Virus record (IMG/VR): IMGVR_UViG_3300036794_000053
Span: 42,198-106,197 of that record
DNA: 64,000 nt
Origin: a virus
Taxonomy: Duplodnaviria > Caudoviricetes
Direction: 5' to 3' (one strand)
Part shown: one piece after another, positions 23,218 to 43,444 of the stretch
Layout of the letters: each line of letters begins with the position of its first letter
Numbering within the stretch: position 1 is the stretch's first letter
The notes under the pieces: generated by a model
The model's database searches: none
What the model was told of the DNA's origin: nothing
Seen by the model: the letters and a program-made list of their open reading frames with translations, nothing else
Translations under genes and position numbers: made by a program

Positions 23218-23997
23218 ATGGCGATTGACCTTATGCAGGTTACCGAATTTTATCCCGGCTATCAGGCACAGTGGGGCCTAGAGCAATACGTCTTCTCCGC
23301 GCAAGGCAACGATATTGAACACGGCCGGAAAGCGGACAAGATTGACGGCTCCGGTTTCGGTACTCGTGTCCGTAACTCGTTGCCTGGTATGCAGGACGGC
23401 TCTTTGAAGATTAAGGGCCTGGCGGCGATGGAGAAGGGGAAGCTGAACTGGCAGCTGAACCAGTGGTTCGGCCGGGTCACCCCGATCAATGCGTGGTATG
23501 CGCTGCAGGGATTGGCCGCTCTGTCCCCCATCACCTTGCAGCCAAGCTCCATCATCGACGCGTCGATCAGCGCGAAGTTGAAGGACGCGGTCGATTTCTC
23601 GCTTGAGCTCGACGCGCGCGGCGCGTATGACGACGGGTTCATTCTGCTCTCCCCAGAGGTTCTGCTGACCGGTTCGTCCGGTACGGGTTCGCAGGACGTC
23701 AACACCCTGTATGGCGGGGCCACCACCACCGGTGGTGTGGGCCAGCTACACGTCCTGGCGTTTGACGGGGGTACGTCTCCGTCGGTGACGGTGACGATTG
23801 AACATTCGCCGGATGGTTCGTCCTGGACGAACCTGGTTTCTTTCCAGGCGCAGTCGGCGGTGGGTTCCCAGCGGATCACTCTGCCTTCCACGACCACCAT
23901 TAACCAGTATGTGCAGGCGACGTGGACGGCGACTGGTAGCCCAACGGATGTTCAGGTGCTGTGCGCCTATGCCCGTGGCGTCAACCTGGACGGCTAA
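23218..23997 (+). CDS. Major tail protein
   Basis: AAGGAG RBS; 'SGFGTRVRNSLPGMQDG'; precedes the chaperones and tape measure genes. Confidence 0.75.
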   Translation: MAIDLMQVTEFYPGYQAQWGLEQYVFSAQGNDIEHGRKADKIDGSGFGTRVRNSLPGMQDGSLKIKGLAAMEKGKLNWQLNQWFGRVTPINAWYALQGLAALSPITLQPSSIIDASISAKLKDAVDFSLELDARGAYDDGFILLSPEVLLTGSSGTGSQDVNTLYGGATTTGGVGQLHVLAFDGGTSPSVTVTIEHSPDGSSWTNLVSFQAQSAVGSQRITLPSTTTINQYVQATWTATGSPTDVQVLCAYARGVNLDG

Positions 23998-24239: not shown

Positions 24240-24680
24240 ATGTCCGAGCACGCCGAGAAGGACATGTCCGTGGAGGACGACGATTTTGAGCTGATCACTA
24301 GCTCCCGTCTGTTGGGTTCCGCGCCGCCGCTCCGGAAGGAAGGGGTCACGTTGAAGGAGTGGCCCACTACTTCGGGGAAGGCGGCGCGGTTCCTGGAGTG
24401 GGAGTTGACGGCGGCCGAGTATGCGGAGTTCCTGGAAGAAGGCCGGGTGTACCGCGACGGTATCCTCAAACGGTACGACACGAAAGATGAGGACTTCCGT
24501 TTCCTGTCCCGCACTACACGTGACCCGAACAACAACCGCATCTGGACGTCGTTTGAGGCGGCGAAGCTGCAACTCGGCTCGATCGGCAAGAGCAGTGTGA
24601 ACATGCTGTTGGCGGCGGCGAACCGGGTGAACAGCGCGCGGGGCGCGGAGGGAAACTCCGAAGCAACCCCCACCGACTAA
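24240..24680 (+). CDS. Tail assembly chaperone (G)
   Basis: AGGAGG RBS; ends just after a G GGA AAC slippery site. Confidence 0.8.
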   Translation: MSEHAEKDMSVEDDDFELITSSRLLGSAPPLRKEGVTLKEWPTTSGKAARFLEWELTAAEYAEFLEEGRVYRDGILKRYDTKDEDFRFLSRTTRDPNNNRIWTSFEAAKLQLGSIGKSSVNMLLAAANRVNSARGAEGNSEATPTD

Positions 24681-24916
24681 TCGCGTTCGACTTCGCGTTC
24701 CAGTGGGGGTACACATCTCCGGACAAGATGCTGCGTGAGATGTCCCAGTCTGACTGGTTGGGGTGGTTGGAGTGGTTGGCGATACGGGGCCCGATCGGTG
24801 GTCCCCGTACCGACTTCTACACCTCCTTCGTGGCGATGCACGCCTCCCAGCCGCAGAAAGAGGTGTCGATCACCGCGTTCAAGATGCCGTGGATTAGAGA
24901 AGAAGACCTTCAGTAA
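24650..24916 (+). CDS. Tail assembly chaperone GT extension via -1 frameshift
   Basis: X XXY YYZ heptamer GGGAAAC at 24650-24656; the -1 frame is open into ORF 24728-24916. Confidence 0.8.
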   Translation, partial: GKLRSNPHRLIAFDFAFQWGYTSPDKMLREMSQSDWLGWLEWLAIRGPIGGPRTDFYTSFVAMHASQPQKEVSITAFKMPWIREEDLQ

Positions 24917-24931
24917 AGGCAGGGGACGATC

Positions 24932-27900
24932 GTGGTTGCTTCAGCGAGCCAACTCCATCTAGAGATCACAGCGGATTCCACTAACGCTGTTGATGCGATG
25001 GATAAGGCGAAGTCCGCGATTCGTAACTTGCATGGTGAGCGGGCTTCGATCGGTATCGAGCTCACCGGCGCCCAAGAGGCCGCTAGCCAGATCGATAGGG
25101 TTCGGCAGGCGCGGGAGAAGGCGTCGGGGACTGTCAAGGTCGGTGTTGACGCTGGCGGTATGGATGAGGCTGAGGCGAAGGTGGGGTCGCTGCGCCGGGC
25201 GGTGCAGGGTTTGGCTGGGGATTTGGCTCCGTTGGGTCGGTCTCGGCAAACGTTGTCGGTTGATTCTGGTGGGATTCGGCAGGCGGCGGCGGATACGGCC
25301 GAGTTTGGTCGGCAAACCAACCAGGCCCGCGGGTCGCTCACCGGTTTGGCTAGTGATGCGCGTGGCGCGGCGGACAGCCATGAGTCGTATTCGCGGTCGG
25401 TCCGGGCCGCCACAGCATCCACCGGTTCGCTGGTCAGTGCGCATGGTGATGCGGAGCGCAGTTTCGGCCGCGTGTCAGCGAAGGCGGACGAGCTGGGTGC
25501 CCGGATGCAGTCGGTGGGTGCGCAGATGGCCGCGCATGAACGCTCAATCAACCAGTTCTCGAATTCTTCTGAGCGGGGTTTGCGTCGGGTCGCTGACGCC
25601 GCCGACGATTTGGGTGCGCGGTCGGGGAACATCGCCGCCGCGGCCAAGGAGTTGAAGGGGTTGGCGTCGGCCGCTGAGGATGCGGATCGGGCGAATGCCC
25701 GGTTGAGCAGCAGCCGCCCGCCCGCACCCCGGGAGCCGGTTCCGGTGCGGGAGTTGGCGATGGCCGGCGCACCAGCCGGCGGCGGGGGCAGCGCGGGTGG
25801 TGGGGCGCAGCCGAGTCCGTCTATGGGGTGGCGTGGCGCGACGAGCCCGAACGAGCCGGGCCGGACCGGGTTCCGGATTGACAACAACGAGCGCCGCATG
25901 CAGGCACGCCAGGGCCGACCAGCTCCTACTGGCGGTACCGGCGGTGGTACTGGTGGTGGGCCGCCGCCACCGCCGAAGGGCTACGGGGGTGGCCCAGTCG
26001 GCGGCGACGATGAGGACCCGGATGATTTGTTGGGTCGCCGGGAGGCCCGGGCGAGGCTGGAGGAGCAGGCCGCGGCTGAGAAGGAAGCCCGGCAGGAAGC
26101 GGACAGGGCGGCCCGCGCGGCGTCTCATCAGAAGGTGATGGACCGGCTCGCGCAGGCCAAGAAAGAGGGCATGCTCAGCCGGGAACAACCACCCGAGGCG
26201 ACCGCCGCGGCTAAACAACTTCAGGATGAGCAGCAGTCGCTGTGGGATGCGGCGCGTGGCGGCCCGGGGACACCGGGCCCGTATGAGACTGGGCCGCATG
26301 GTGAGGCGGGTTCTGGTTTCCGTAGCCATTTCCCGCCGCCGATGCAGGGCCCGGAGCGGCCGGTAAGCCCGGAAACGCAAGCTGATATCAACCGGGCCGC
26401 CCAGTTGCATGAGCAGGAGCATGCGAAATGGCAGGCGAAACACGACGCAAAGGCGATCGAGAAGCAAGCCGATAGGGCGGCGGCGGGTTTGGGTCCGACG
26501 GGTCCGGAGCAGTCTCCGTTTGAGTCGGACGCTGAGTATGCGACTCGGATGGCTCGTGGCGTCAAGGACACGAAGGCTGCGGAGGAGAGGACTCGGGCGA
26601 AGCTTGCCGCTCGGGGGACTGTCTCCGCGAAACACCTTGGGGAGATCGAGGAGTCGGAGCGGACGCTGAGGTACGGTCCGCCACCGGGCGACACCGCGTC
26701 TACCGCTCCGGTGTGGAATGCGGATAAGGGCCAGTGGGAGTACCCCAATGAGCCGCCGGACAAGCAACCTCCTCCCCGCCGTGGAGGCGGCCGTGGTGGT
26801 GCTGGGGGCGCTGGTGGTAAGGAACCGGGCCCGTTCGAGGACGAGGAGAAAGCGTTAAAGTCGGTTCACGGGCCCGCGATGGTCAGCCTGCTGGGTTCTG
26901 GTATGGCCACGATTGTTACCGCTCTCGCCGGGCTGCTCCAGGCCAAAGAGGTGATCAAGAACACGCCGTCGTTGGCGGGCGCGTTTGGTGATGCGCAGAA
27001 ACATTTCGCCCAGGGTGTTTCGGATGCGATGGACGCGAAGATTGATGCGGCCGCGGCGCCAATGCTTGAGGCCACCAAAAACAATCTGTACCAGTTTGGT
27101 AAGCAGTTGGAGAAGACCGGCGAGGCGATGCTGCCGACGTTCGCCCACGTGTTGGATCAGGCGGCGGCGCAGGCCGCGACCTCTAATGCGGCGTTGCGGC
27201 CGATCATGCCGGGCGCGGCGACTGGGTTGGGTGACACGCTCGATTCGATTATGTCCGCGATTTCGTCGCCGGCTTCGATCGCTGGCCAGAAGTCGGTGAT
27301 TGGTGCGTTGACGAGCGGGCAGGATCAGGCGGCCATCTCGGATATCACTGGCGGGGTTATCGGCGCCGGTGGCCCGGTGTTGAAAGGTGTTTTGGACGCT
27401 GGCGGCATGTTGGACAGCGCGTTCGGTGGCGGGTTCGGTGGGGGTGACAAGTCCCAACAGTTCGCGTCGGCTATTTCGGCTGGTCTCGGTGGCCGTGCCG
27501 GTTGGCTAGCGAGTGGCGGGAAAGGCGTGTTGGCCGCTCGCGCGGCCAGTGGCACAGCTGGGGCCGCTGAAGCTGCTGGCGGGGCAGCTGGTGGCGCGGG
27601 GGCCGCTGTCGGCGCCGAGACGTCTCTTGTCGGCCCCATCTCGGGTGCCGCTGCCGGTGTTGGTCTGGGTTTGCTCACCCAGTATCAGCAGCAGCAGAAC
27701 GCTGAGCAACCGGGCAGTCAGGACACCACGCAGAACTTGCTTTCCGCGGCGGGCGGGTACGGCTTGGCGAAAGCGTTCGGGCTCAAAGGTGGCTGGCCGA
27801 TGATTGCTGGTTTTGCCGCCGACGCCGCGACAAGTGAAGCGCCGATACCGAAAGACTGGAAGACCGCGATTGACAAAACCGTGACCGGCGCCGGTCTTGG

Positions 27901-30643
27901 CGCATGGGGCGGGAAGGCTTTCGGCCCGGAAGGCGCGATCCTGGGCGGCATTATTGGTGGTGTTGAGAGCGGCGCGCCCGCCATTATTAACGCGCTGGGT
28001 GGGACCACGTCGTCTGGTGCGGGGAAAGCAGCCACCGGTTTGGGGGCTATGTGGAACAGCACCGATGTTATCACGTCCCCTCTTCAAAACATCGCTAAGG
28101 GAACTGATTTCAACGACACCGCTTTCGGTAAGGATTTCAAGCAGTTCCGGCAGGGTGTGGCGGATGTAATGCACGGGCCGCTGGAACACCTCGCCGGCAG
28201 CGCGCAAGACCCGATCGCTAAGGCGCTCTACGGCCCGCAGGGACTCATCAACCCAGGTCTGTTCGGACCAACATCCGCACCGACGCTGCCGACCCCACCG
28301 CCTGGTACCGGGATGATCCCCGCACCTGACATCGACACGCAGGCGTTTCCTCCCGGCAAGAAAGAGAACACTGTCGTCCAAGCCCCAGGGCCCGGGAAGC
28401 CTGGAGGAGTTCTCCAGCGGGTACAGGACGCCAACGGAAACACAATTGGTTACCGGAACACGTTTGATTCTGGTGCGACTAGTTCTTGGGTGTCGACTCC
28501 TAAGGGCGGAAGTGAGCTTGATACTACGACCGCTCCGGATAAGCAGGGCTTGCAGGATCTAACTAGGTCTATTCAGGCTCCTGGTGATTCGAAGGTGCGT
28601 AGTCAGGTTATCCACAATGCCAACGCTTTTGGTGGCGGCACGGCGGATGTTCCTACCTATACGTCCCCGCCGGCTCCCGCGCTGCCACCGGCTGCCGCCG
28701 CGCCGGCACCAACGCAGGGAAAGGGCCCATTCCATAGCACCCAAACCTTTACTAAGGGTGGGGTCGGCCACACCAATACGTATGACCGTACGGCTGATGG
28801 GTCGAGCGCTTATCACCAGACGTCCACCGCTGGCGAAGATATGACCACCTATAAGGACGCTGCTGGCGATAAGCAGACTGTTGGCCAGTGGGTGGACAAG
28901 CAGGGGAAGGTGCATCAGCTTAAGGGGAAGGTTCAGGTTGGCGGCGCGGGTCCCCCTGGCGAGGATGAGTATGGGGGTATCCCGGTTCCTGGTGAGGTGG
29001 CGAAGCAGAAGGCGGCGCAGCAGAACGCGTTGGACCAGTTGAATCGTGCTCGGGGTATTCCTGGGCCTGGTTCGGGTGGTCCTCGTCCTGACCTCGGTGG
29101 GAGGCTGGGCGGTGCCGCGTCCGCGTCGGCGGGCACGCTCGGTAAGGTTGGGACCGCGACCGCTGGTGCGAGTACGAGCATGGGTGGTTTGGCCGCGGAA
29201 ACGAATAAGGCTAATACGGCGTTTCGTCAGACTGGTGCGGCGACCACAGCGGCTACGGCGCATATGAAGCAGCTGAATCAGTTTAAGCAACTGCAGCAGC
29301 AGCATCAGAAAACGCAGACGGCGGGTCAGAAACTGACTCAGGCGTTGGGTTTGGCTCAGGGTGCTGGTGGTGTGGCCGCTGACCATATGCAGAATGTGCA
29401 GAATTCCGCTGGTCAGGCGCAGGCGGGTTTGCAGGCGGTCCATCAGGGTTTGACTGCGCAGTCGGCCACGCTGGCGGCTGGTGCTGGTGGCGCCCCGCAG
29501 GCACCACAACTGCAGCCGCCGCCGCAGCTGCAGCCGCAGCAAAGGCCCGGTGGGCAGGTGGCCGGCGGGGAGGGTCTCGCCGCTCAGGCCAGGGACAAGC
29601 AGCAGCAGCAGCCATCCGCTGGCGGTGGTGCTGCTGGCGCCCAGCTGGACCCGGCTAAGGGTGGTGGTGATCTCGCTCAGGCGCAGAGCCAACTTGTCGC
29701 CGGTGTGTCGGATGCCGCTGATTTGACGGCGAAGGCTGGTTCTTTGACGGGGAAGAAGGAGGAGGAACACCTTAAGCAGGCGAAGGGCCCGGCGGATAAA
29801 GGGACCAGCAGTTTCCTCGATTCGATGGAAAGTTCTTTGCAGCAGGGCGCGGATAAGGGCAGCGGTGGTGGTGGTGGCGCTGGGTGTGCCGCTGGCGCGA
29901 AGGTCGCCGATAAGGCCGCGAGTTGTGGTAAGAGCGAGGCGAAGTCGCAGTCGCCGTCTCGGGTGTTTATGGAACTCGGCGAGAACATGACGTTGGGTTT
30001 GAAGATTGGTATGGAGGAAGGCGTCAAGGGCAGCTTTGAGCAGCTCGGCGCGGACATGAGTACTGGTTTGGCTATTGGTTTGGTCGACGGTATTAAGCAT
30101 CGTGGCTATTTGGCTGGTCCGACGATTCAGAGTGTGGTGAATCAGGTCGGTGGCCAGATGTCGTCGGGTATGGGTTCGGCGGTGGACAAATCGGTGCAGT
30201 CCGCCGTGAATTCGGTGAGCCAGTTCGACTACAACGAGGCGCTGTCCGGTGGGTTGGGCGCTGGTGTCACGGCCGCGTCGAACGGGGTGAGCCCGATCGC
30301 GCAGGACTACGGTTTGATGATCGGTTATACGTGGGCTGAGAATGTGGTGACGGGCACCCAAAGTGTGCTGCAGTCCAGCCAGTTCGCCGATCTGGTGGTG
30401 CCGCAGTTTAAGTCGGCGCTAGCCCAGGCCGATCTCGGCAAACTGGGTTTGTTGCCGCCGGCTGGTTCGGGCGCCCAGTACTACACCACCACTTCGGGTT
30501 CGGCTGGGATGGTGTCGATGTCGCCGGTGGTGAACGCGACGATCATGGTGAATGTGGATGGTTCACCGATGGAAACGGTCGCGCAGCAGGTGGTGGACAC
30601 GTCGCTGAACAATCTGACGAACTCGATCAGCGCACAAAGGTAG
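24932..30643 (+). CDS. Tape measure-like protein, copy 1 (1903 aa)
   Basis: Follows the chaperones; 'LHLEITAD' N-terminus, Ala/Gly-rich hydrophobic core, 'SPSRVFMELGENMTLGLKIG'. Confidence 0.8.
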   Translation: MVASASQLHLEITADSTNAVDAMDKAKSAIRNLHGERASIGIELTGAQEAASQIDRVRQAREKASGTVKVGVDAGGMDEAEAKVGSLRRAVQGLAGDLAPLGRSRQTLSVDSGGIRQAAADTAEFGRQTNQARGSLTGLASDARGAADSHESYSRSVRAATASTGSLVSAHGDAERSFGRVSAKADELGARMQSVGAQMAAHERSINQFSNSSERGLRRVADAADDLGARSGNIAAAAKELKGLASAAEDADRANARLSSSRPPAPREPVPVRELAMAGAPAGGGGSAGGGAQPSPSMGWRGATSPNEPGRTGFRIDNNERRMQARQGRPAPTGGTGGGTGGGPPPPPKGYGGGPVGGDDEDPDDLLGRREARARLEEQAAAEKEARQEADRAARAASHQKVMDRLAQAKKEGMLSREQPPEATAAAKQLQDEQQSLWDAARGGPGTPGPYETGPHGEAGSGFRSHFPPPMQGPERPVSPETQADINRAAQLHEQEHAKWQAKHDAKAIEKQADRAAAGLGPTGPEQSPFESDAEYATRMARGVKDTKAAEERTRAKLAARGTVSAKHLGEIEESERTLRYGPPPGDTASTAPVWNADKGQWEYPNEPPDKQPPPRRGGGRGGAGGAGGKEPGPFEDEEKALKSVHGPAMVSLLGSGMATIVTALAGLLQAKEVIKNTPSLAGAFGDAQKHFAQGVSDAMDAKIDAAAAPMLEATKNNLYQFGKQLEKTGEAMLPTFAHVLDQAAAQAATSNAALRPIMPGAATGLGDTLDSIMSAISSPASIAGQKSVIGALTSGQDQAAISDITGGVIGAGGPVLKGVLDAGGMLDSAFGGGFGGGDKSQQFASAISAGLGGRAGWLASGGKGVLAARAASGTAGAAEAAGGAAGGAGAAVGAETSLVGPISGAAAGVGLGLLTQYQQQQNAEQPGSQDTTQNLLSAAGGYGLAKAFGLKGGWPMIAGFAADAATSEAPIPKDWKTAIDKTVTGAGLGAWGGKAFGPEGAILGGIIGGVESGAPAIINALGGTTSSGAGKAATGLGAMWNSTDVITSPLQNIAKGTDFNDTAFGKDFKQFRQGVADVMHGPLEHLAGSAQDPIAKALYGPQGLINPGLFGPTSAPTLPTPPPGTGMIPAPDIDTQAFPPGKKENTVVQAPGPGKPGGVLQRVQDANGNTIGYRNTFDSGATSSWVSTPKGGSELDTTTAPDKQGLQDLTRSIQAPGDSKVRSQVIHNANAFGGGTADVPTYTSPPAPALPPAAAAPAPTQGKGPFHSTQTFTKGGVGHTNTYDRTADGSSAYHQTSTAGEDMTTYKDAAGDKQTVGQWVDKQGKVHQLKGKVQVGGAGPPGEDEYGGIPVPGEVAKQKAAQQNALDQLNRARGIPGPGSGGPRPDLGGRLGGAASASAGTLGKVGTATAGASTSMGGLAAETNKANTAFRQTGAATTAATAHMKQLNQFKQLQQQHQKTQTAGQKLTQALGLAQGAGGVAADHMQNVQNSAGQAQAGLQAVHQGLTAQSATLAAGAGGAPQAPQLQPPPQLQPQQRPGGQVAGGEGLAAQARDKQQQQPSAGGGAAGAQLDPAKGGGDLAQAQSQLVAGVSDAADLTAKAGSLTGKKEEEHLKQAKGPADKGTSSFLDSMESSLQQGADKGSGGGGGAGCAAGAKVADKAASCGKSEAKSQSPSRVFMELGENMTLGLKIGMEEGVKGSFEQLGADMSTGLAIGLVDGIKHRGYLAGPTIQSVVNQVGGQMSSGMGSAVDKSVQSAVNSVSQFDYNEALSGGLGAGVTAASNGVSPIAQDYGLMIGYTWAENVVTGTQSVLQSSQFADLVVPQFKSALAQADLGKLGLLPPAGSGAQYYTTTSGSAGMVSMSPVVNATIMVNVDGSPMETVAQQVVDTSLNNLTNSISAQR

Positions 30644-30654
30644 GTGAGTGAACA

Positions 30655-33600
30655 ATGGCCGGGCTACACCTCGAAGTCACAGCGGAAGATTGCCGCCCCG
30701 CTGACACCATGCGAAGGGTCGGCGAAGCGGTTCGGGAATTGAGCCGTGAAGACTTACGCGAGGATGTCGAGGTTGAAGCCGCGGAAGACGCGGCCCGGCG
30801 GTTGGCGAGGGTGCGTGAGGCGTGGGCCGGCTCCTCACGCACCGTCAAGTTTGAGATCGAAACCGAGGACGAGTCCGAGGAGAAGATCGGGTCTTACCGC
30901 CGCGCGGTGCAGGGTTTGGCCAAAGAGTTCGACGTCATCGGCATGACCAGGCACACCGTCATGGTCGACGGCGGGTTGTTGCGCCGCGCGTCCGGTGACA
31001 TGGACGAGTTCTCCCGGCAGGTTGACCGTGGTCGTGTCATGGTGCGCGCAATGGGCGAATCGGCGGACGCCGCCGGTGACGGTCTGGATGTGTATTCGGG
31101 TTCGTTGCGGGCGGGTGAGCGGGACACCCGTTCTTTGGTGGGGGCTCACGCGGATGCGGAACGCAGTTTCGCGGAAAGCACTTCCCGCATGGACGATATC
31201 GGGTCGCGTCTGAATGTTGTGGGTAAGGCCGCGGATTACGAGTCGCCGCTAGATCGCGGTGGCGTTCCTTCATTTGGGTCGGCGCCGTCGGAACCACGGG
31301 TGCCTGCTTTAGCTGGCGCCGGTGGTCAGGCTCCGCGTGGGGCGCAGATGACCAGGTATTACAGGGCGCCGCAGAAAGCGCGGCCTCGTTCCCCGGAAGA
31401 CCCGAAGGATCGGGCCGCGCGCCGTGCTGTGGTTCGGGAGGCTGAGCGGATAATGCGGGGCGGGGGACCACCTCAGGGGCCTCGTAAGCCACCCGGCCCC
31501 CCTAGTGGCGGTTCCGGTGGCACTCCCGGCGGCGGCGATGAGTCGTTCAATGAGCGGAGGCTTCACCACTTTCTGGGCAGCGAAGACTTCGAGGCGGAAA
31601 TGGAGAAGGAGCGCCAGCGGTTGCTGGAGGAACGCCGGAATGAGGCGCTTCAGCGCGCAATCGAACGCGGCAAGGACCTTCCCCGGCCTGATGCTGATAT
31701 GCAGGTGCCGCCGGCTACGGTGGCACCCGGCTCCGAGGAAGCGTTGGGTCGGACACGGCAACAGCCGAGCCCAGGGGAAGTCGCTGACGCCACCCAGGAG
31801 AAGCGGGTGCCGCGGTCTTCCCCGCAGGAGGACTCTTTAGAGAAAGCCCGTAGAGAAGCTGGCGAGAAACTGGACCAAGCCTTCGAGAAGTACAAGAAGG
31901 AGCATTCGGAGGAGAGTCTTAGGGAATGGGCGCGCGCCCAGGCGCACTACGACGTCGCAAGGGCAAACCTGCGGGATGCCGCCAACAAATTGCCTCCTGC
32001 CCCACCGAGCGCGCCTAGCCCGCCCGTGCAGCCGAGTGCGCCCAAACCGCCTGTGCAGCCGAAGGCCCCGAGCGTGCCCCCTACGGGTGGTGGCGCGGGC
32101 ACTGCGCCGGCCCCACCTGCGCAGCCGGCGCCTCCCGCGCAACCTCCCCCAGCTGCCCCGCCCAGCGCGCCCCAACCCCCTGCTGCGCCCCCGGCGCCCC
32201 CGGCTCCCGCGGAACCTCCTCCGTCCCAGCCGGTTCCTCCGCGTCCTGCCGATCAACCTCCGGCTGGTCCTCCAGCTGAACCGTCGGCCGGAGGACCGCC
32301 GCCTACAGCCGCCGGGGGTGAGCGCGGCGGGGGTGGGGGTAAGGAACCTGGTCCGTTCGAACGGGAAGCGCAGGCGTTCAAGTCCAGCCTTGGCGCGGGC
32401 ATGGTCAGTGGTTTCCTGGCTGGGACGGCCACCATGGTTAGCGCCATGGCTGGTTTGGCCGAAGCCAAAACGGTGATCAAGAACACCGGCGAGTTGAAGA
32501 ACGCTTTTAGCGACGCGAAGGCCGAGTTCGCCAAAGGCATTCGAGACAACGCGAACGCTAACCTTGACGCCGGATTCGCACCCCAACTGGAACACCTGGG
32601 TGATTCGTTTAACCAGTTCGGCAAGAGTCTGGAACAGACCGGCCAGTCTATGTTGTCGACGGCAGCTAATCTTTTGAACCAAGGGGCGGCGCAAGCCGCT
32701 ATCTCCAGTGCGGCGCTGCGGCCTATCATGCCCGGTGCCGGCGCTAGCTTGGGTAACACCATTGACTCGCTGCTCGGCGCGGTGTCGTCACAGGCTTCCA
32801 TCGCGGGCCAGAAGAGCGCCATTGGCGGTTTGACCAGCGCCGACGATCAGTCGGCCATCTCGGATATCGCCGGTGGCCTCATCGGCGTTGGTGGCCCAGC
32901 GCTGAAAGCGGTGGCGGACATTGCTGGGATGGTCGACAGCGCGTTCGGCGGCGGGTTCGAAGATGAGTCTCAGAAGTTCGCTGCCGGCATTTCCGTTGCC
33001 GCTGGTGCGCGCGCGGGTTGGGTAGCCGGCGGCCCGGTGGGTGCGCTGGCCGGCGCCGGCCTTGGCCTTCTCACCCAGCTCCAGCAGGGGCAGGGGCAAC
33101 AAGACACCACCCAAGGTCTGCTTACCGCGGCTGGGGGCTACGGACTTGGCAAGGCTTTCGGGCTCAAGGGCGGCGCGTCGATGCTTGTCGGTCTCGGGGC
33201 CGATTTCCTGACGTCTGAGGTTTCGCTACCGCCCGAGTGGGAAGACACCGCTCAGAAAGCCGTGCAGGGCGGCGGCCTGGGGGCGGTCCTAGGTAACGCT
33301 CTCTTCGGGGGGAAGGGCGCGATCGCGCTCGGTCTCGCTGGCGCTCTCCTCAATGCGCAGGATTCCGCCGGGGCCGCGATGGGACTCACCTCGAAGTCTG
33401 GTTGGGGGAAGATCGGCAGCTCGGCTGAGTCGGGACTGCTGGATTGGGTGAAGGACGCGGGGCTCGGCGTCCAGGGCGCGCATGAGGCGTTCGGTCAGGA
33501 CTTCGCTTCGTTCCGGCAGGGTGTGGCGGACGTAACGCAAGGACCGCTGCAGGACATTGCCGGCGCCGCTCACGACCCAATCGATCAGGCGGTGTTTGGC

Positions 33601-35802
33601 CAACACGGGTTCCTTATGCACCCTGGCATGTTCGGTCCCACATCTCCGGTGGCTATGCCGGATGTGCCGGGTGTGCAACCCGGCTCGGGGATGATGTCTG
33701 TTCCGGATATCGATCAGCAGATGTTCCCGCCGGGTTCGAAGCAGGACACGGTCACTACTCCGCTGGGGACGTTCCAGCGTGCCCAGGGCGATGACGGCGC
33801 GCTCAGTTTCCAGAACCAGTTCATTTCGGGTGCGAGCAGCGCTTACCAGTCGGCTCCGGGGCAGGGCAGCGTGCTTGACACGCAGTCCGCTCCGGACGCG
33901 TCGGGGGCGTATCAGCAGCAAATTGTTACGCAGGACCCGGCTTCTGGTATTACACGTACTCAGGAGCAGGATTTTGATCCTGCGAAGGGTGGTCTCCAGC
34001 GGCCGCTGGTCCCTGTGTATACGTCACCTACGCCCCCCCAGCCTAAACCGGGCGAAGACGATGCGATTGGCCAGCCCAAGAAGAAGGGGCCCGGCGGACC
34101 GAAGGATAAGGGCGATTTGCGGGGTGAGAAGCACACTGGTGGCTTCCACATCGGGTTGTGGCATTCGTTGAGCGGCGGCCAAAAGCTCGTCCAGAAGCCT
34201 CAGAAGCCCCAGAAGGATAAGAACAAGCCCCAACCCGCTCCCCCTACGGGCGGCGGTGGTGGCGGCGGTTCCAGTCTGAACAGTCCTAGTGCGATATCGG
34301 ACTTCCTCAGCCAGCTGAACTCTGATGCGTCTTCGGCTCCGGCGCCGTTGAGTCAGGTGGGGCATGCGTCGGCGGCGGCGAAGTCGCACTTGGCGAACGT
34401 GTCGGCGAACTCGAACAAGGTGAACACCGCGTTCCGCCAGACCGGTGTGGATGCCGCGTCGGCTACGGCGCAGACCCGGCAGCTTGACCATTCGACTCAA
34501 CTGCAGCGGCAGCTTGAGCAGACTCACCAGTCAAACGCTGGCGTCAATAGGTCGTACAGCCAGGTAGGGGCGGCTGGTAGCCAAACTGCCGACAGCATGC
34601 AGAATGTGCAGAACACTTCGGGCCAGGCGCAGCAGACGTTGCAGGCGAATCGGCAGTCGTTGACTCCGCAGCCACCGGCCCCGCCAAAGCACATCCCGCC
34701 TCCGGTGCACGCTCCGCAGCAACCACCACAGCAGCAGCAGCCGGGTGTGGGCGATGCCAACATGTCGCCGCTGAAGGACTCAGCGGCACAACAACAGCAG
34801 CAGCAGCCCGCTAGCGCCGGTGGTGACATTGCGCCGCCCCCGGACCCATCATCGGCCGGCGCGGACCTGGCTATCTACCAGGAACACACGGTAGAGATGC
34901 TGTGGGATGCCGGGTTCGTCCTGGCCGGTGTGGAGAGCCCAACCGAAATGACCGAGAAACACATCGGCCATATGGGCCAAAACGTTGGTCACGACACCGG
35001 CAATGATGCGAAGGGTGGTTCCGCCGGGTCTCAGGTGATGGAGGAGGCCACTAAGGCTGGCGGCGGTAAAGGCGGTTCGTGCGCCACCGGTAAGGCCGAG
35101 GCGAAGAAAGCTGGTAGTTGTGCGAGTGGCGCCGCTGGGGCTAAGTCGCCGGCTACGAAGTGGATGCCGATCGGCGCGGATTTGACCGCTGGTATGGATG
35201 TTGGTATGCGGCGGGACCGGTTGGAGAGCAGCGGCCATAACGCGGCCAGTGCGTGGGCGAGTCGTATGGCGGACGGTTTGGAGCATGGCGGCTACACCAG
35301 GGCGGCTGACTCGGTTGTCGGTCAGCTCGGCGGCCAGCTCGGGCTGGGCGACGCCGTGAACAACGCGCTAGCGAACGTCGCTAACACCATCGCCCAGTTC
35401 AACTACAACTCGGAGTTGGCTGGCGCGTTCGGGGCCGGGCTGGTCGCCGCGGCGAATGGTGTCACTCCGATCGCGCAGGATCACGGGTTGATGATCGGGT
35501 ACGTGTTCGCCGAGAACATCGTGACCGGCGCGCAGAATGTGCTGCAATCGGCGGCGTTCGCGGACCTCGTCGTCCCAGCCTTCAAGTCGGCGTTGGCGCA
35601 AGCTGACCTCGGCAAATTGGGACTGCTCCCTCCCGCTGGTCGGGGTGCGCAGTATTACACCACCACTTCTGGTAGCGCTGGGATGGTGTCGATGACACCG
35701 GTGGTGAACACGACGGTGACCGTGTCTGATTCTGGTGGGACGCCGTTGCAGTCCACTAACAAGGTGTTGAGGGCGTCGTGGACTAACCGTAACGCCGCGT
35801 AA
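30655..35802 (+). CDS. Tape measure-like protein, copy 2 (1715 aa), colinear paralogue
   Basis: Shares many blocks with copy 1, e.g. FKSALAQADLGKLGLLPPAG.GAQYYTTTSGSAGMVSM. Confidence 0.75.
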   Translation: MAGLHLEVTAEDCRPADTMRRVGEAVRELSREDLREDVEVEAAEDAARRLARVREAWAGSSRTVKFEIETEDESEEKIGSYRRAVQGLAKEFDVIGMTRHTVMVDGGLLRRASGDMDEFSRQVDRGRVMVRAMGESADAAGDGLDVYSGSLRAGERDTRSLVGAHADAERSFAESTSRMDDIGSRLNVVGKAADYESPLDRGGVPSFGSAPSEPRVPALAGAGGQAPRGAQMTRYYRAPQKARPRSPEDPKDRAARRAVVREAERIMRGGGPPQGPRKPPGPPSGGSGGTPGGGDESFNERRLHHFLGSEDFEAEMEKERQRLLEERRNEALQRAIERGKDLPRPDADMQVPPATVAPGSEEALGRTRQQPSPGEVADATQEKRVPRSSPQEDSLEKARREAGEKLDQAFEKYKKEHSEESLREWARAQAHYDVARANLRDAANKLPPAPPSAPSPPVQPSAPKPPVQPKAPSVPPTGGGAGTAPAPPAQPAPPAQPPPAAPPSAPQPPAAPPAPPAPAEPPPSQPVPPRPADQPPAGPPAEPSAGGPPPTAAGGERGGGGGKEPGPFEREAQAFKSSLGAGMVSGFLAGTATMVSAMAGLAEAKTVIKNTGELKNAFSDAKAEFAKGIRDNANANLDAGFAPQLEHLGDSFNQFGKSLEQTGQSMLSTAANLLNQGAAQAAISSAALRPIMPGAGASLGNTIDSLLGAVSSQASIAGQKSAIGGLTSADDQSAISDIAGGLIGVGGPALKAVADIAGMVDSAFGGGFEDESQKFAAGISVAAGARAGWVAGGPVGALAGAGLGLLTQLQQGQGQQDTTQGLLTAAGGYGLGKAFGLKGGASMLVGLGADFLTSEVSLPPEWEDTAQKAVQGGGLGAVLGNALFGGKGAIALGLAGALLNAQDSAGAAMGLTSKSGWGKIGSSAESGLLDWVKDAGLGVQGAHEAFGQDFASFRQGVADVTQGPLQDIAGAAHDPIDQAVFGQHGFLMHPGMFGPTSPVAMPDVPGVQPGSGMMSVPDIDQQMFPPGSKQDTVTTPLGTFQRAQGDDGALSFQNQFISGASSAYQSAPGQGSVLDTQSAPDASGAYQQQIVTQDPASGITRTQEQDFDPAKGGLQRPLVPVYTSPTPPQPKPGEDDAIGQPKKKGPGGPKDKGDLRGEKHTGGFHIGLWHSLSGGQKLVQKPQKPQKDKNKPQPAPPTGGGGGGGSSLNSPSAISDFLSQLNSDASSAPAPLSQVGHASAAAKSHLANVSANSNKVNTAFRQTGVDAASATAQTRQLDHSTQLQRQLEQTHQSNAGVNRSYSQVGAAGSQTADSMQNVQNTSGQAQQTLQANRQSLTPQPPAPPKHIPPPVHAPQQPPQQQQPGVGDANMSPLKDSAAQQQQQQPASAGGDIAPPPDPSSAGADLAIYQEHTVEMLWDAGFVLAGVESPTEMTEKHIGHMGQNVGHDTGNDAKGGSAGSQVMEEATKAGGGKGGSCATGKAEAKKAGSCASGAAGAKSPATKWMPIGADLTAGMDVGMRRDRLESSGHNAASAWASRMADGLEHGGYTRAADSVVGQLGGQLGLGDAVNNALANVANTIAQFNYNSELAGAFGAGLVAAANGVTPIAQDHGLMIGYVFAENIVTGAQNVLQSAAFADLVVPAFKSALAQADLGKLGLLPPAGRGAQYYTTTSGSAGMVSMTPVVNTTVTVSDSGGTPLQSTNKVLRASWTNRNAA

Positions 35803-35811
35803 ATAGGCAAG

Positions 35812-35867
35812 CCGTCACCCCCGTCCAAGCAAAAAATGGGCGGGGGTGACGGGGCTGCGCCTTTTTT
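35812..35867 (+). terminator. Terminator-like hairpin after TMP2
   Basis: CCGTCACCCCCGTCCA / TGGGCGGGGGTGACGG followed by a T run. Confidence 0.6.
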
Positions 35868-35894
35868 CTTCTTTCGCCGAATTGGTGAGGCCCC

Positions 35895-37559
35895 ATGCCG
35901 TCTTCATTGACCACCATCACCTACCAGCCCACTTCCTCTCCGCAGCTGGGTAACTGGAGTGTGGTGGGTGCCGCGACCGGATGGCAAGCCGTTTCGTCTG
36001 GCACGAATCTGGAGTATGTGGAGTTGGCGCCGGGGATTTGCCGGCTACCGTCACAAGTTATCCAGTTCGGCTTCCCCACCCCGTCAATCCCTACCGGCGC
36101 CCGGGTGTATTCGGTGGGTATTCGCCGCACCGTGCAACTCGTTGCACCCACACCACCGGCAGTGAACTGCTTCCACTGGTTCCGCTGCCTCAGCGGTTTG
36201 ATTCAGGTCGCTGGGCAGGCGCAGCAGGAGCACACCCAGTTCTTCTCCTCCGCGCTCCCGACGAATCCAGTGCCGGGCGGGTGGATGACGGAAAGCGTGT
36301 ACACCTCCACGACCGCGCCGGATGGCACGGCGTGGGACCTGACCACGAATCTGTCCTCGGGGAACTTCATCTACGAAATGGGCCGCGGCGACACCGCCAG
36401 CACCACCATCTTTGTGTCCGAGGTGTATCTGGACATCACCTACCAGACACAGTCGACGGTGACGGTGACCGCGCCGACCGGGACGGTGACCACCACCCAA
36501 CCGACGGTGACATGGACGTATGCGTCGGCGAACTCCCAACCTCAGCAGGGCTATCAGGTTGCGGTGTACACGGCTGCGCAAACCGCCGGTATGGGATTCG
36601 CCCCGTTTGTCACGACCCCGATCGATGGAACCAGCGGAGTCGTCCTGGGTGAAGCCCTGCAATGGACGATGAACATTGATTTGACCAACGGCTCGTATGC
36701 GGCGTACGTCCAGTCTGAGGCGCAGTGGGCGGGGCCGGGGAGTTTCTTCTCGGCGACCGGTTCGACCACGTGGACGCGTTCGGTGTCGTCGCCACCGCCG
36801 AATGCGTCGTTCACCTCGGCGGTATTCGATGCGGAGAACAATCGTGTCGCATTGACTTTCGCCCCGGGTGGGTCGTCGCCGGCCACGGTCGCGTTCACGG
36901 TGTTCGCCAGCCGCGACGGCGGGCAGTCGTACAACCCGATTCCGAGTTTGACGTATGTGCCGGCGCAGGGCATGAGCCCGATCACCGGATACGACTATGT
37001 GGCGCCGCTGAACAGGCTGTCCCAGTATTTCGTGTTGGCTTACAGCGGGTCACCACTGCAGGCCGCCGCGTCAGCATCGGCTGTTTTGTCGGTTACTCCG
37101 ACTGGTGACCGAGCGTGGTTGAAGGACCCGTCGAATCCGATTCTCAACACCGTGCTCCCGATCGGCGCTCCGAAGCAAAGCGACGAAGGTATCAAGATCA
37201 CGAAGAGGCGCATGCAAGGCGCCTTCCAGTTACTGGGCGGGGTCGGCACACAAGTGCTACCGGTCATTGTGTCCGGGCCAACCTACGGCGACGAATACGA
37301 ATTCGAACTCATCTTCGTCGAAGGCGACCCCACCGTGCCAATGACGCTGTGGGCAACGGTCGACGAACTCGACCGCTCCGGCAACACCCTGCTCCTACAA
37401 CTACCTGATGGCACGCAGTTGTGGGTGGTGACCGGACCGGGCGCTACCAGCCAGGACACCGAAGAGCATTACAACGCGGTCGCGGGTGATCCGACGGTCA
37501 CTTTGTGGCGCCGCCGAAAACTAACCATGACGGAGACAAATCCGCCGGCGTTCTATTAG
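35895..37559 (+). CDS. Minor tail protein (FN3-like / distal tail)
   Basis: Beta-rich; 'YDYVAPLN', 'AWLKDP..PILN', 'TLLLQLPDG'. Confidence 0.7.
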   Translation: MPSSLTTITYQPTSSPQLGNWSVVGAATGWQAVSSGTNLEYVELAPGICRLPSQVIQFGFPTPSIPTGARVYSVGIRRTVQLVAPTPPAVNCFHWFRCLSGLIQVAGQAQQEHTQFFSSALPTNPVPGGWMTESVYTSTTAPDGTAWDLTTNLSSGNFIYEMGRGDTASTTIFVSEVYLDITYQTQSTVTVTAPTGTVTTTQPTVTWTYASANSQPQQGYQVAVYTAAQTAGMGFAPFVTTPIDGTSGVVLGEALQWTMNIDLTNGSYAAYVQSEAQWAGPGSFFSATGSTTWTRSVSSPPPNASFTSAVFDAENNRVALTFAPGGSSPATVAFTVFASRDGGQSYNPIPSLTYVPAQGMSPITGYDYVAPLNRLSQYFVLAYSGSPLQAAASASAVLSVTPTGDRAWLKDPSNPILNTVLPIGAPKQSDEGIKITKRRMQGAFQLLGGVGTQVLPVIVSGPTYGDEYEFELIFVEGDPTVPMTLWATVDELDRSGNTLLLQLPDGTQLWVVTGPGATSQDTEEHYNAVAGDPTVTLWRRRKLTMTETNPPAFY

Positions 37560-41960: not shown

Positions 41961-42307
41961 CCTCACCTTTCGAGTTCCCCAGCAGCGTGACGGTCGCCCC
42001 GCCGGCTGTTCCGCAGCTCGTGATGGCGCCACCGCCGGCACCACAAGCGATCGTGATGCCGATCGTTGGGCCACCAGGTCCGCAAGGACCGCCCGGTGAC
42101 AACTCGACGGCGCTCCAGTATCAGACATCGGTGATTAACCAGGCCGTGGTCACGGTGAATCACAACCTGGACTTCTACCCGGCCGGCATCGTCTGCATGG
42201 ATAACAACGGCACTTTGACCCAGTACGGCGCCGTCTCCTATCCGAGCGTCGGAACTTTGATTCTCACCTTCGGCTTCTTGTTCACCGGCGACATCTTCTT
42301 GTCTTAG
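41957..42307 (+). CDS. Tail protein with a short collagen-like repeat
   Basis: 'GPPGPQGPPG', 'VNHNLDFYP'. Confidence 0.65.
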   Translation: MTSPFEFPSSVTVAPPAVPQLVMAPPPAPQAIVMPIVGPPGPQGPPGDNSTALQYQTSVINQAVVTVNHNLDFYPAGIVCMDNNGTLTQYGAVSYPSVGTLILTFGFLFTGDIFLS

Positions 42308-42319
42308 GAGTGTAGTTCT

Positions 42320-43444
42320 GTGGTTGCAATCCGGTACGCCGCCAACATTGACTTGACCAGCTTTGCGCTCGTGCACGCGATGCTCGACCCAGTGACCAGC
42401 GACCCGACCGGTTTGGGCACCGGAGATGCGGGCCGTGTCTGGTACCGCAGCGACATCCCTACGTTGAAGACCTGGAACGGCACCGGCGCCATCGATATGT
42501 TGGCCCGCGCCAGCCAGACCGGCACCCAGACCGCTTCGACGATTAGCGACTTCACCGCCGCAGTGAACGCGCTGCGGTGGGAGTCGATGACTGCGCCGAA
42601 TGCCGCCGTGAATATGAACTCTCAGCAGTTCAGCTCCCTAGCTGCCGCGTCGGGCTCCGGTCAGGCGGTGGAGTATGCCCAGTTCAACACCGCACTGACC
42701 AACCTGAAGTCAGGTTTGGATTTCAAGGGCACCGAGGCGACCGTGGTGGCGACCGCGAACGTCAGCCTTTCGGCGCCGGGTGCCACGATCTCCGGGCACA
42801 CCATGGCCGCCAATGACACCGTGTTGTTGACCGCGCAGTCGACCGCGACGCAGAACGGTCTGTACAACTGGGTTGGCGCGAGCTCGGCGTTGACTAGGAC
42901 GGCGGACACGAGCACGACCGGTTCGATCTATTCGGGCACTATGGTCGCGGTCGGCGATGCCGGCACCACTGACCCGGGCACTGTGTGGATGCAGACCACA
43001 GTCGGTACCGGCTCGAATGGCGCCATCACTATCGGTACCGACAGCATGACCTGGATTCAGCCGTTCACCGCGACGACCTATAGCGCGGGCAACGGTATCA
43101 CCATTACTGGGTCGACGATCGCCGCATCGTTGGGTACTGGGTTGACCTTCAGCGGCTCGACCATTGTCCCCGACTTTACGGTTGATTCGCAGTACCAGGA
43201 GTCAATCGTCCCGACTGCATCTACTGGCAAGTGGACTATTAGCGGTGCGGTGGGCACGTACAACCATGCGTTGGGGTCCTACGCGCCGGACGTACACATC
43301 TATGTCTATACGTCGCCAGCATCGGGCTTCACCCAGGGCGATGAGGTCGAAATGTATGTGAATCGTTCTGACGCCAACAATGTCCAGATCACGTTCCCGG
43401 CCGCGCCGGCCTCGAACAACTGGATCATCCGTGTTGCGCGATGA
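42320..43444 (+). CDS. Tail fibre-like protein
   Basis: 'VATANVSLSAPG...VLLTAQSTATQNGLY...TRTAD'. Confidence 0.7.
   Translation: MVAIRYAANIDLTSFALVHAMLDPVTSDPTGLGTGDAGRVWYRSDIPTLKTWNGTGAIDMLARASQTGTQTASTISDFTAAVNALRWESMTAPNAAVNMNSQQFSSLAAASGSGQAVEYAQFNTALTNLKSGLDFKGTEATVVATANVSLSAPGATISGHTMAANDTVLLTAQSTATQNGLYNWVGASSALTRTADTSTTGSIYSGTMVAVGDAGTTDPGTVWMQTTVGTGSNGAITIGTDSMTWIQPFTATTYSAGNGITITGSTIAASLGTGLTFSGSTIVPDFTVDSQYQESIVPTASTGKWTISGAVGTYNHALGSYAPDVHIYVYTSPASGFTQGDEVEMYVNRSDANNVQITFPAAPASNNWIIRVAR

Follow-up and report, generated by a model that had tools for sequence, protein, structure and literature searches.

A 64,000-nucleotide stretch of DNA from a tailed virus (Duplodnaviria; Caudoviricetes), hereafter referred to as the window, carries two complete genes related to tape measure proteins (TMPs) side by side, in the slot of the tail module that a single gene occupies in its relatives. 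The window corresponds to positions 42,198 to 106,197 of the 106,197-bp linear IMG/VR viral record IMGVR_UViG_3300036794_000053, which is estimated to be ~86% complete; the phage is uncultured and its genome is at least 106 kb long. To judge from its sequence, the pair (paralogues A and B) is an old, lineage-specific tandem duplication of a TMP gene. The best overall explanation, which we regard as reasonably probable, is a real duplication of this kind whose products may form mixed A/B oligomers in one tail. Taken by itself, the statement that the duplication is real and that both copies are functional appears highly probable. The pair is arranged as follows:

24932..30643, + strand: tape-measure paralogue A, 1903 amino acids (aa), GTG start; the more conservative copy.
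30644..30654, + strand: A/B spacer, 11 nt.
30655..35802, + strand: tape-measure paralogue B, 1715 aa, ATG start; the faster-evolving copy.

Each of these open reading frames (ORFs) was recovered at the coordinates listed with zero internal stops, and the GC content by codon position is coding-like throughout A and B. The TAG codon of A is followed after 11 nt by the ATG of B, which is preceded by a Shine-Dalgarno-like AGGTGA site at 30642-30647, 7 nt upstream. B is read in the -1 frame relative to A, and a TGA in the frame of B at 30649-30651, just 5' of its ATG, makes an A/B fusion by frameshift or readthrough impossible, so that two polypeptides are expected and a fused product was discarded as a candidate. 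A single TMP gene split in two was also discarded, because each copy on its own covers a whole single-copy orthologue in the same order. The public gene calls are too short for both genes (1881 aa for A, from Met23; 1133 aa for B, from near residue 583, past a Pro-rich tract); the N-terminal parts of A and B are taken as coding because homology, both between A and B and with the relatives, reaches the starts used here.

A global MAFFT alignment of A and B contains 1681 aligned positions, 718 of them identical (43%), and the two proteins are colinear from the first block to the last. With BLASTP, the central domains match with an E-value of 6e-65 (58% identity over 258 aa) and the N-terminal 190 aa with an E-value of 3e-34 (41% identity). 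A is longer than B by 188 aa, the linkers differ by many indels, and no other paralogue pair exists within the window. The initial annotation, made from the sequence alone, had described two full-length, colinear paralogues in tandem with both frames intact, and this description is borne out; every motif block that it listed was found in both translations, with the order kept. On the other hand, it had considered the pair unusually rich in Pro and Gly for tape measures, a trait that turned out not to be special to A and B, as Pro and Gly together make up 21-24% of all 16 family members examined. Regarding the linkers themselves, residues ~445-560 of B (31990-32330) form a tract of ~115 aa with 50-56% Pro + Gly and PxxP-like repeats; the matching region of A is charged and helical-looking, this being the biggest qualitative linker difference between the copies.

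The conserved segments of the two copies are:

26783..28267, + strand: conserved central domain of A (alignment A2), starting with a hydrophobic segment, residues 648-666.
32311..33636, + strand: conserved central domain of B (alignment A2), 58-60% identical to that of A.
29945..30016, + strand: “SPS” tape-measure motif of A (SQSPSRVFMELG...; alignment A3).
35143..35208, + strand: degenerate “SPS” motif of B (KSPATKWMPIG...; alignment A3).
30383..30502, + strand: most conserved C-terminal block of A, 40 aa, residues 1818-1857.
35557..35676, + strand: most conserved C-terminal block of B, 40 aa, residues 1635-1674.

The C-terminal block, annotated beforehand as near-identical, shares 38 of its 40 residues between A and B; the same codon is used in just 15 of these 38, and DNA identity amounts to 73%. 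Proteins that are nearly identical here, yet written in different codons, point to purifying selection on both copies. Recent gene conversion and an assembler repeat were also considered for this block, and both are ruled out by so low a DNA identity. The ratio of non-synonymous to synonymous substitution rates (dN/dS; NG86) between A and B, proposed earlier as a check along with the pairwise alignment, is 0.12 in the C-terminal block, 0.23 in the central domain (A residues 630-860) and 0.43 over the whole alignment, for which dS is ~1.4 and therefore saturated. Thirty-six residues do not vary among 11 single-copy relatives; 34 of them are retained in A and 32 in B. Relaxed selection on one copy, which had been named as an outcome that would overturn the annotation, is largely excluded by the values of the conserved blocks and by these retained invariants.

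Relatives were gathered with three kinds of query, namely the major tail protein (identity 75-87%), the protein of 554 aa encoded after the pair (identity 52-79%) and a tape-measure profile. The locus is readable in fifteen distinct relatives; all of them have a single TMP ORF (1107-1948 aa) with the homologue of the 554-aa gene behind it, and the two-copy state was seen in none. The closest relative (L035), with 82% identity in the portal and 87% in the major tail protein, has one TMP gene of 1765 aa. In maximum-likelihood (ML) trees of 8 and 20 taxa, A and B are sisters with 100/100 support and a shared stem of 0.50-0.52, and a tree built from the C-terminal 250 aa gives the same grouping (99/98). 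Furthermore, A and B carry the same derived residue at 25 sites at which the three nearest outgroups are uniform, and their central domains are 60% identical to each other vs. ~30% to the nearest orthologues. The path between A and B (~1.0) is slightly above half of that from A to the nearest relative, which indicates that the duplication is old. Capture of an allele from a sampled relative was rejected on the strength of the 100/100 sister grouping, the N-terminal domain alone giving no resolution.

Wider searches have not enlarged the two-copy group: neither megablast nor tblastn with A and B as queries matched any of 50,697 phage records, the sole matches of a word-indexed search in 5.8 billion proteins were the gene calls of the window itself, scans of viral contigs with B alone and with the exact junction sequence gave nothing, and a metagenome scan added only distant single-copy relatives. 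A separate observation concerns a lone homologue of A and B, P0037 (1891 aa), encoded at L034:10001-15676 (ENA ERZ26858887) on a contig of 2,032,941 bp that is presumably bacterial. P0037 is 40-43% identical to A and B over ~730 aligned residues, and 67-74% identical at the C-terminal end; its neighbors include resolvase, RuvB and MgtC, and none of the phage's other structural genes was matched within 10 kb on either side of it. Possible readings of this gene are a leftover of a prophage, a tape measure that has been domesticated, or a hint at the identity of the host.

The surroundings of the pair are those of a tail module. The gene order in the window is large terminase, portal, MuF-like protein, capsid-like protein (phrog_13692), head-tail adaptor, tail terminator, major tail protein, G, A, B and tail proteins, and the genes next to the pair are:

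23218..23997, + strand: major tail protein, 259 aa; phrog_9522, E 1.6e-24; 75-87% identical in relatives.
24240..24680, + strand: tail assembly chaperone G, 146 aa, directly 5' of the tape-measure slot; 71% identical in L035.
24650..24916, + strand: GT extension in the -1 frame; slippery heptamer at 24650-24656, in phase with G.
35895..37559, + strand: conserved tail-tip protein in the Dit position, 554 aa.

A and B thus stand in the position of a tape measure, and the order of major tail protein, G, tape-measure slot and 554-aa protein is kept in all the relatives, with one TMP gene in the slot. The sequence G_GGA_AAC at 24650-24656 fits the X_XXY_YYZ phase of G, and the -1 frame behind it contains 88 open codons up to a TAA at 24914-24916, 15 nt 5' of A. 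The chaperone is, as far as its sequence tells, a classic G/GT arrangement with a predicted -1 frameshift; the slip site of the chaperone of Caulobacter phage Colossus is reported to be the same heptamer (PMC3556154). The profile of the C-terminal region (alignment A3) matches the tape measure gp57 of Staphylococcus phage 80alpha, as present in its solved baseplate (PDB 6v8i, 9mu2), at residues 1037-1093 with an E-value of 2.3e-4, the match being one short motif of ~57 positions that runs through “GIHSPS..F...G”. When the SPS motif of a family member was searched with tblastn, 216 phage records were found, including Staphylococcus, Mycobacterium, Streptomyces, Arthrobacter and Pseudomonas phiCTX phages, and among the matches listed all annotated features are TMPs. 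In B this motif keeps the invariant S and P and three G, with the second S replaced by A.

Curated models do not recognize the pair. Neither Pfam nor NCBIfam yielded a TMP-model match at E <= 0.1 for A, B or five relatives, PHROGs gave no TMP-family match for A or B, and nine distant homologues likewise lack a curated TMP domain; the TMP models sought include PF10145, PF06791, PF09718, TIGR01760 and the PHROG TMP families. A Pfam scan of A and B returned no domain at E <= 1 beyond noise, and no muralytic domain in either of them. The central-domain profile found no match in the PDB, and the ESM Atlas gave weak leads only (a TMP_2 cluster at 0.86, rank 19), which were not used as evidence. Against 1.84 billion representatives, the same profile retrieved 69 proteins with HMMER, the longest having 1891 aa among the matches listed; no fused double-length form occurs among the 69 family proteins, none of which was found to exceed 1948 aa. 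Of the initial wording “tape-measure-like”, the position, the G/GT chaperone and the C-terminal motif shared with 80alpha stand, and a match to any curated model is missing. On these three features, A and B are most simply taken as putative tape measures of a family outside the curated models.

As to a largely helical build with a central hydrophobic segment, there is a weak SMC coiled-coil match at A residues 22-257, and the N-terminal 250 aa are weakly coiled-coil-like. On the Kyte-Doolittle scale, the 19-mer at residues 648-666 of A has a mean of 1.57, passing the threshold of 1.5, and the homologous segment of B falls just under it. Mutagenesis of the TP901-1 TMP put the minimum for infectivity at its first 154 residues, its first hydrophobic region and its last 60 residues (PMC5099701); A keeps equivalents of all three regions, and so does B, save for the extreme C-terminal end. 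Downstream of the pair, the 554-aa protein is 52-79% identical in 12 relatives and invariably comes next after the tape-measure gene. It has no Pfam, PHROG or PDB sequence match, and its AlphaFold2 model, a confident one (predicted local distance difference test, pLDDT, 78), is all-beta and multi-domain; it was not called as a Dit, as all the Foldseek matches were FN3/Ig-like sandwiches of a generic kind, tail-tip chains from lambda and T5 among them. Tail proteins matching phrog_1887 follow, and phmmer against the PDB gave nothing useful for either the 554-aa protein or a 540-aa tail protein. A head-decoration-like gene (phrog_2647, E 1.5e-60) was also noticed at 42320-43444, 3' of the tail genes and outside the head module.

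To judge from the predicted expression signals, the two genes probably form one unit. A candidate terminator was found after B, with counterparts in the relatives:

35801..35878, + strand: terminator-like GC-rich hairpin with U-run, after B; folding free energy (dG) -41 kcal/mol, z-score -3.84.
L035:14765-14835; L017:12768-12840; L015:12708-12765; L025:13833-13900: hairpins of the relatives.

Four of the five relatives tested have such a hairpin after their single TMP gene (z -4.4 to -5.7), in a common position and with different sequences. No stable hairpin or terminator was detected at the A/B junction (z +1.3), and the lack of a signal between A and B, together with the hairpin after B, means that the pair as a whole occupies the one-gene slot of the relatives. 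A and B are probably co-transcribed, and each of them would have its own ribosome-binding site, that of B being AGGTGA; the hairpin may act as an attenuator that reduces the expression of the distal tail genes.

As for the effect of the doubling on the tail, both one shared tail and two tail types are conceivable. TMPs are homo-oligomers in the lumen of the tail tube, as in the 80alpha baseplate structure, and co-expressed duplicates of a homo-oligomer tend to go on interacting. Given this homo-oligomeric nature and a near-identical C-terminal block in both copies, mixed oligomers would be the likeliest outcome; the two TMP paralogues are accompanied by a single chaperone, a single tube protein and a single set of tip genes. 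In such a scheme, G/GT would bind both A and B and load them onto one tip complex, into which the two would dock via the shared C-terminal block, and mixed A/B oligomers would then form inside a single tail. A, as the conservative copy, would supply the ancestral terminal contact via its extreme C-terminus, and B would be drifting or specializing in its N-terminal domain, middle region and last 25 residues. The terminal L..SI..QR motif is present in A and, among 12 aligned family members, is missing only in B. Provided that both copies function, we place their co-assembly in one tail at slightly under an even chance.

Several observations weigh against an old duplication with co-assembling products. 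Besides the silence of the curated TMP models, the AlphaFold2 model of the C-terminal 236 aa is mostly helical but unreliable (pLDDT 46). In the N-terminal domain, A is 48-51% identical to the orthologues vs. 41% to B, and a tree of the N-terminal 240 aa does not resolve a five-member clade, the A + B grouping having an approximately unbiased p-value (p-AU) of 0.50; both copies sit on long branches in this tree, that of B being the longest. The simplest reading of this signal would be a duplication in this lineage followed by faster N-terminal change, strongest in B, and an old recombination, an old homogenization of the central domain or regional rate shifts may also lie behind it. Moreover, the pair is known from one phage population only, and the phage, being uncultured, is known from its genes alone. 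Co-assembly is suggested by analogy with the general behavior of duplicated homo-oligomers, and the difference of 188 residues with its many indels could equally favor separate homo-oligomers.

A stricter form of co-assembly would be an obligate two-subunit tape measure, with a fixed A:B ratio in one tail and the ancestral roles divided between the subunits, which we consider possible and lean against. A would then retain the contact of the extreme C-terminus with the tip complex, leaving B free to change in its N-terminal domain, its middle and its C-terminal end. If true, this would be the first case among non-contractile tails of a ruler, or ejection protein, that is heteromeric.

Alternatively, A and B could each form homo-oligomers that nucleate separate tails on the same tip complex, giving two virion classes with tails of ~285 and ~257 nm, if each residue adds 0.15 nm as was assumed for phiCbK gp95 (PMC3556154), and possibly with a different ability to cross the host envelope. 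Each copy has the N-terminal domain, the central hydrophobic domain, the SPS motif and the C-terminal block that such independence would call for, and the 188-aa difference with the linker indels could disfavor in-register mixed coils. Nonetheless, the terminal motif lost in B alone argues against its full self-sufficiency, a length difference of 10% has no obvious selective value, and the single chaperone, major tail protein and tip set, with no second paralogue pair in the window, also speak for one kind of tail. Dimorphic tails are thus unlikely in our assessment.

One copy, most likely B, might also have ceased to be a ruler, being repurposed (e.g., as an extra ejected or channel-forming protein) or slowly decaying. 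B is the more derived copy. Its terminal branch in the ML trees is ~1.7 times as long as that of A (0.62-0.64 vs. 0.36-0.40), and its branch dN is higher overall (0.34 vs. 0.195), the gap being widest at A residues 1113-1667 (0.55 vs. 0.14). Where three outgroups agree, the ancestral residue is kept in A only at 62 sites and in B only at 29; B has a degenerate SPS motif and a final stretch of 25 residues that has diverged and is 5 residues shorter. All this would suit a change of role; yet in the central domain the branch dN of B shows no gap with that of A (0.154 vs. 0.162), and B has an intact 5.1-kb frame with an ATG start and a strong AGGTGA site, 32 of the 36 family-invariant residues, the dN/dS of 0.12-0.23 in the conserved blocks, and, like A, no new domain detected by Pfam/NCBIfam. 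A non-ruler role for B is therefore distinctly improbable, and its outright decay very unlikely.

An end-to-end arrangement of A and B, in a tail of ~540 nm, is unlikely in view of the hub-proximal block kept by B, and can be given very little credence. A further explanation, to which we attach hardly any probability, is a chimera in which the assembler joined the TMP alleles of two co-occurring related phages head to tail. The source is indeed metagenomic, and the sample series is rich in related phages with highly divergent TMP genes. Nevertheless, exact repeats between A and B and their flanks do not exceed ~19 nt, so that no k-mer path bridges the two genes end to start, and the longest stretches shared by A and B are diverged homologous segments (68-80% identity). 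The junction consists of only 11 nt and the ribosome-binding site, free of fragments of the chaperone or of the downstream gene; the post-TMP hairpin is present once, after B; and A and B group as sisters and have derived residues in common. In addition, gene lengths and the 11-nt and 92-nt gaps match the window in the Logan assembly of run SRR11834599, obtained with a different pipeline: its 19,193-bp contig contains the A protein, identical save for the start-codon convention, the 11-nt gap, a 1715-aa ORF that is equated with B only by its length and spacing, the 92-nt gap and the next gene. This agreement is tempered by the absence of the exact 1715-aa sequence of B from the protein collection searched, and by the identity of A, which means that the SRR11834599 reads may come from the same sample. 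The assembly chimera, also foreseen initially as a possible refutation, is largely excluded by the lack of a long exact repeat, the clean junction and the same layout in a second assembly.

The significance of the pair derives from the rule that one TMP gene gives one tail length, which lies behind both the annotation of tails and the understanding of the ruler mechanism. A natural pair of unequal length (1903 and 1715 aa), long selected in a canonical siphovirus module that has one chaperone and one tip complex, constitutes a ready-made experiment on this rule, posing the questions of whether a tube can be built around a mixed ruler, which subunit would set its length, and how duplicated homo-oligomers diverge. 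There is also a lesson for annotation, as a TMP family with 69 representatives escapes all the curated models and automatic gene calling shortened both genes. The practical limit is an uncultured phage represented by one population only.

Compared with known systems, the closest likeness is to the single TMPs of siphoviruses, such as lambda gpH, the TP901-1 TMP and 80alpha gp57, which occupy the same slot after the major tail protein and the G/GT chaperone, are encoded by the largest gene of the tail module, and have, as the pair may also have, a coiled-coil-like N-terminus and a central hydrophobic region; 80alpha gp57 (PDB 6v8i) additionally has the C-terminal SPS motif in common with the A/B family. 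These systems have one gene, whereas here there are two full-length paralogues belonging to a small Pro/Gly-rich family that matches no curated model. The internal expansion of repeats in TMPs (PMC3271669), and the repeat deletions made in TP901-1 (PMC5099701), resemble the present case in that length evolves by duplication or loss of sequence, but here the whole gene is doubled from start to stop, giving two polypeptides. In the literature, “two tape measure” mostly denotes two chaperone products, and searches turned up no previous case of a siphovirus with a G/GT chaperone whose TMP paralogues are both full-length and in tandem. For jumbo myophages of S. aureus, a pair of neighboring tape-measure-like genes is on record, one copy having peptidoglycan hydrolase domains and being annotated as a tail lysin (bioRxiv 10.1101/2020.12.14.422802; PMC10638138). 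In those phages the pair occurs in all four of MarsHill, Madawaska, Machias and DC4 (genes 00259, 00260), the tails are contractile and the copies bear different muralytic domains; here, in contrast, the phage is a siphovirus with G/GT, no enzyme domain was detected in A or B, and the pair is absent from all 15 relatives. The pair is thus unlike the known cases, with no enzyme cargo, unequal lengths and a distribution confined to one lineage.

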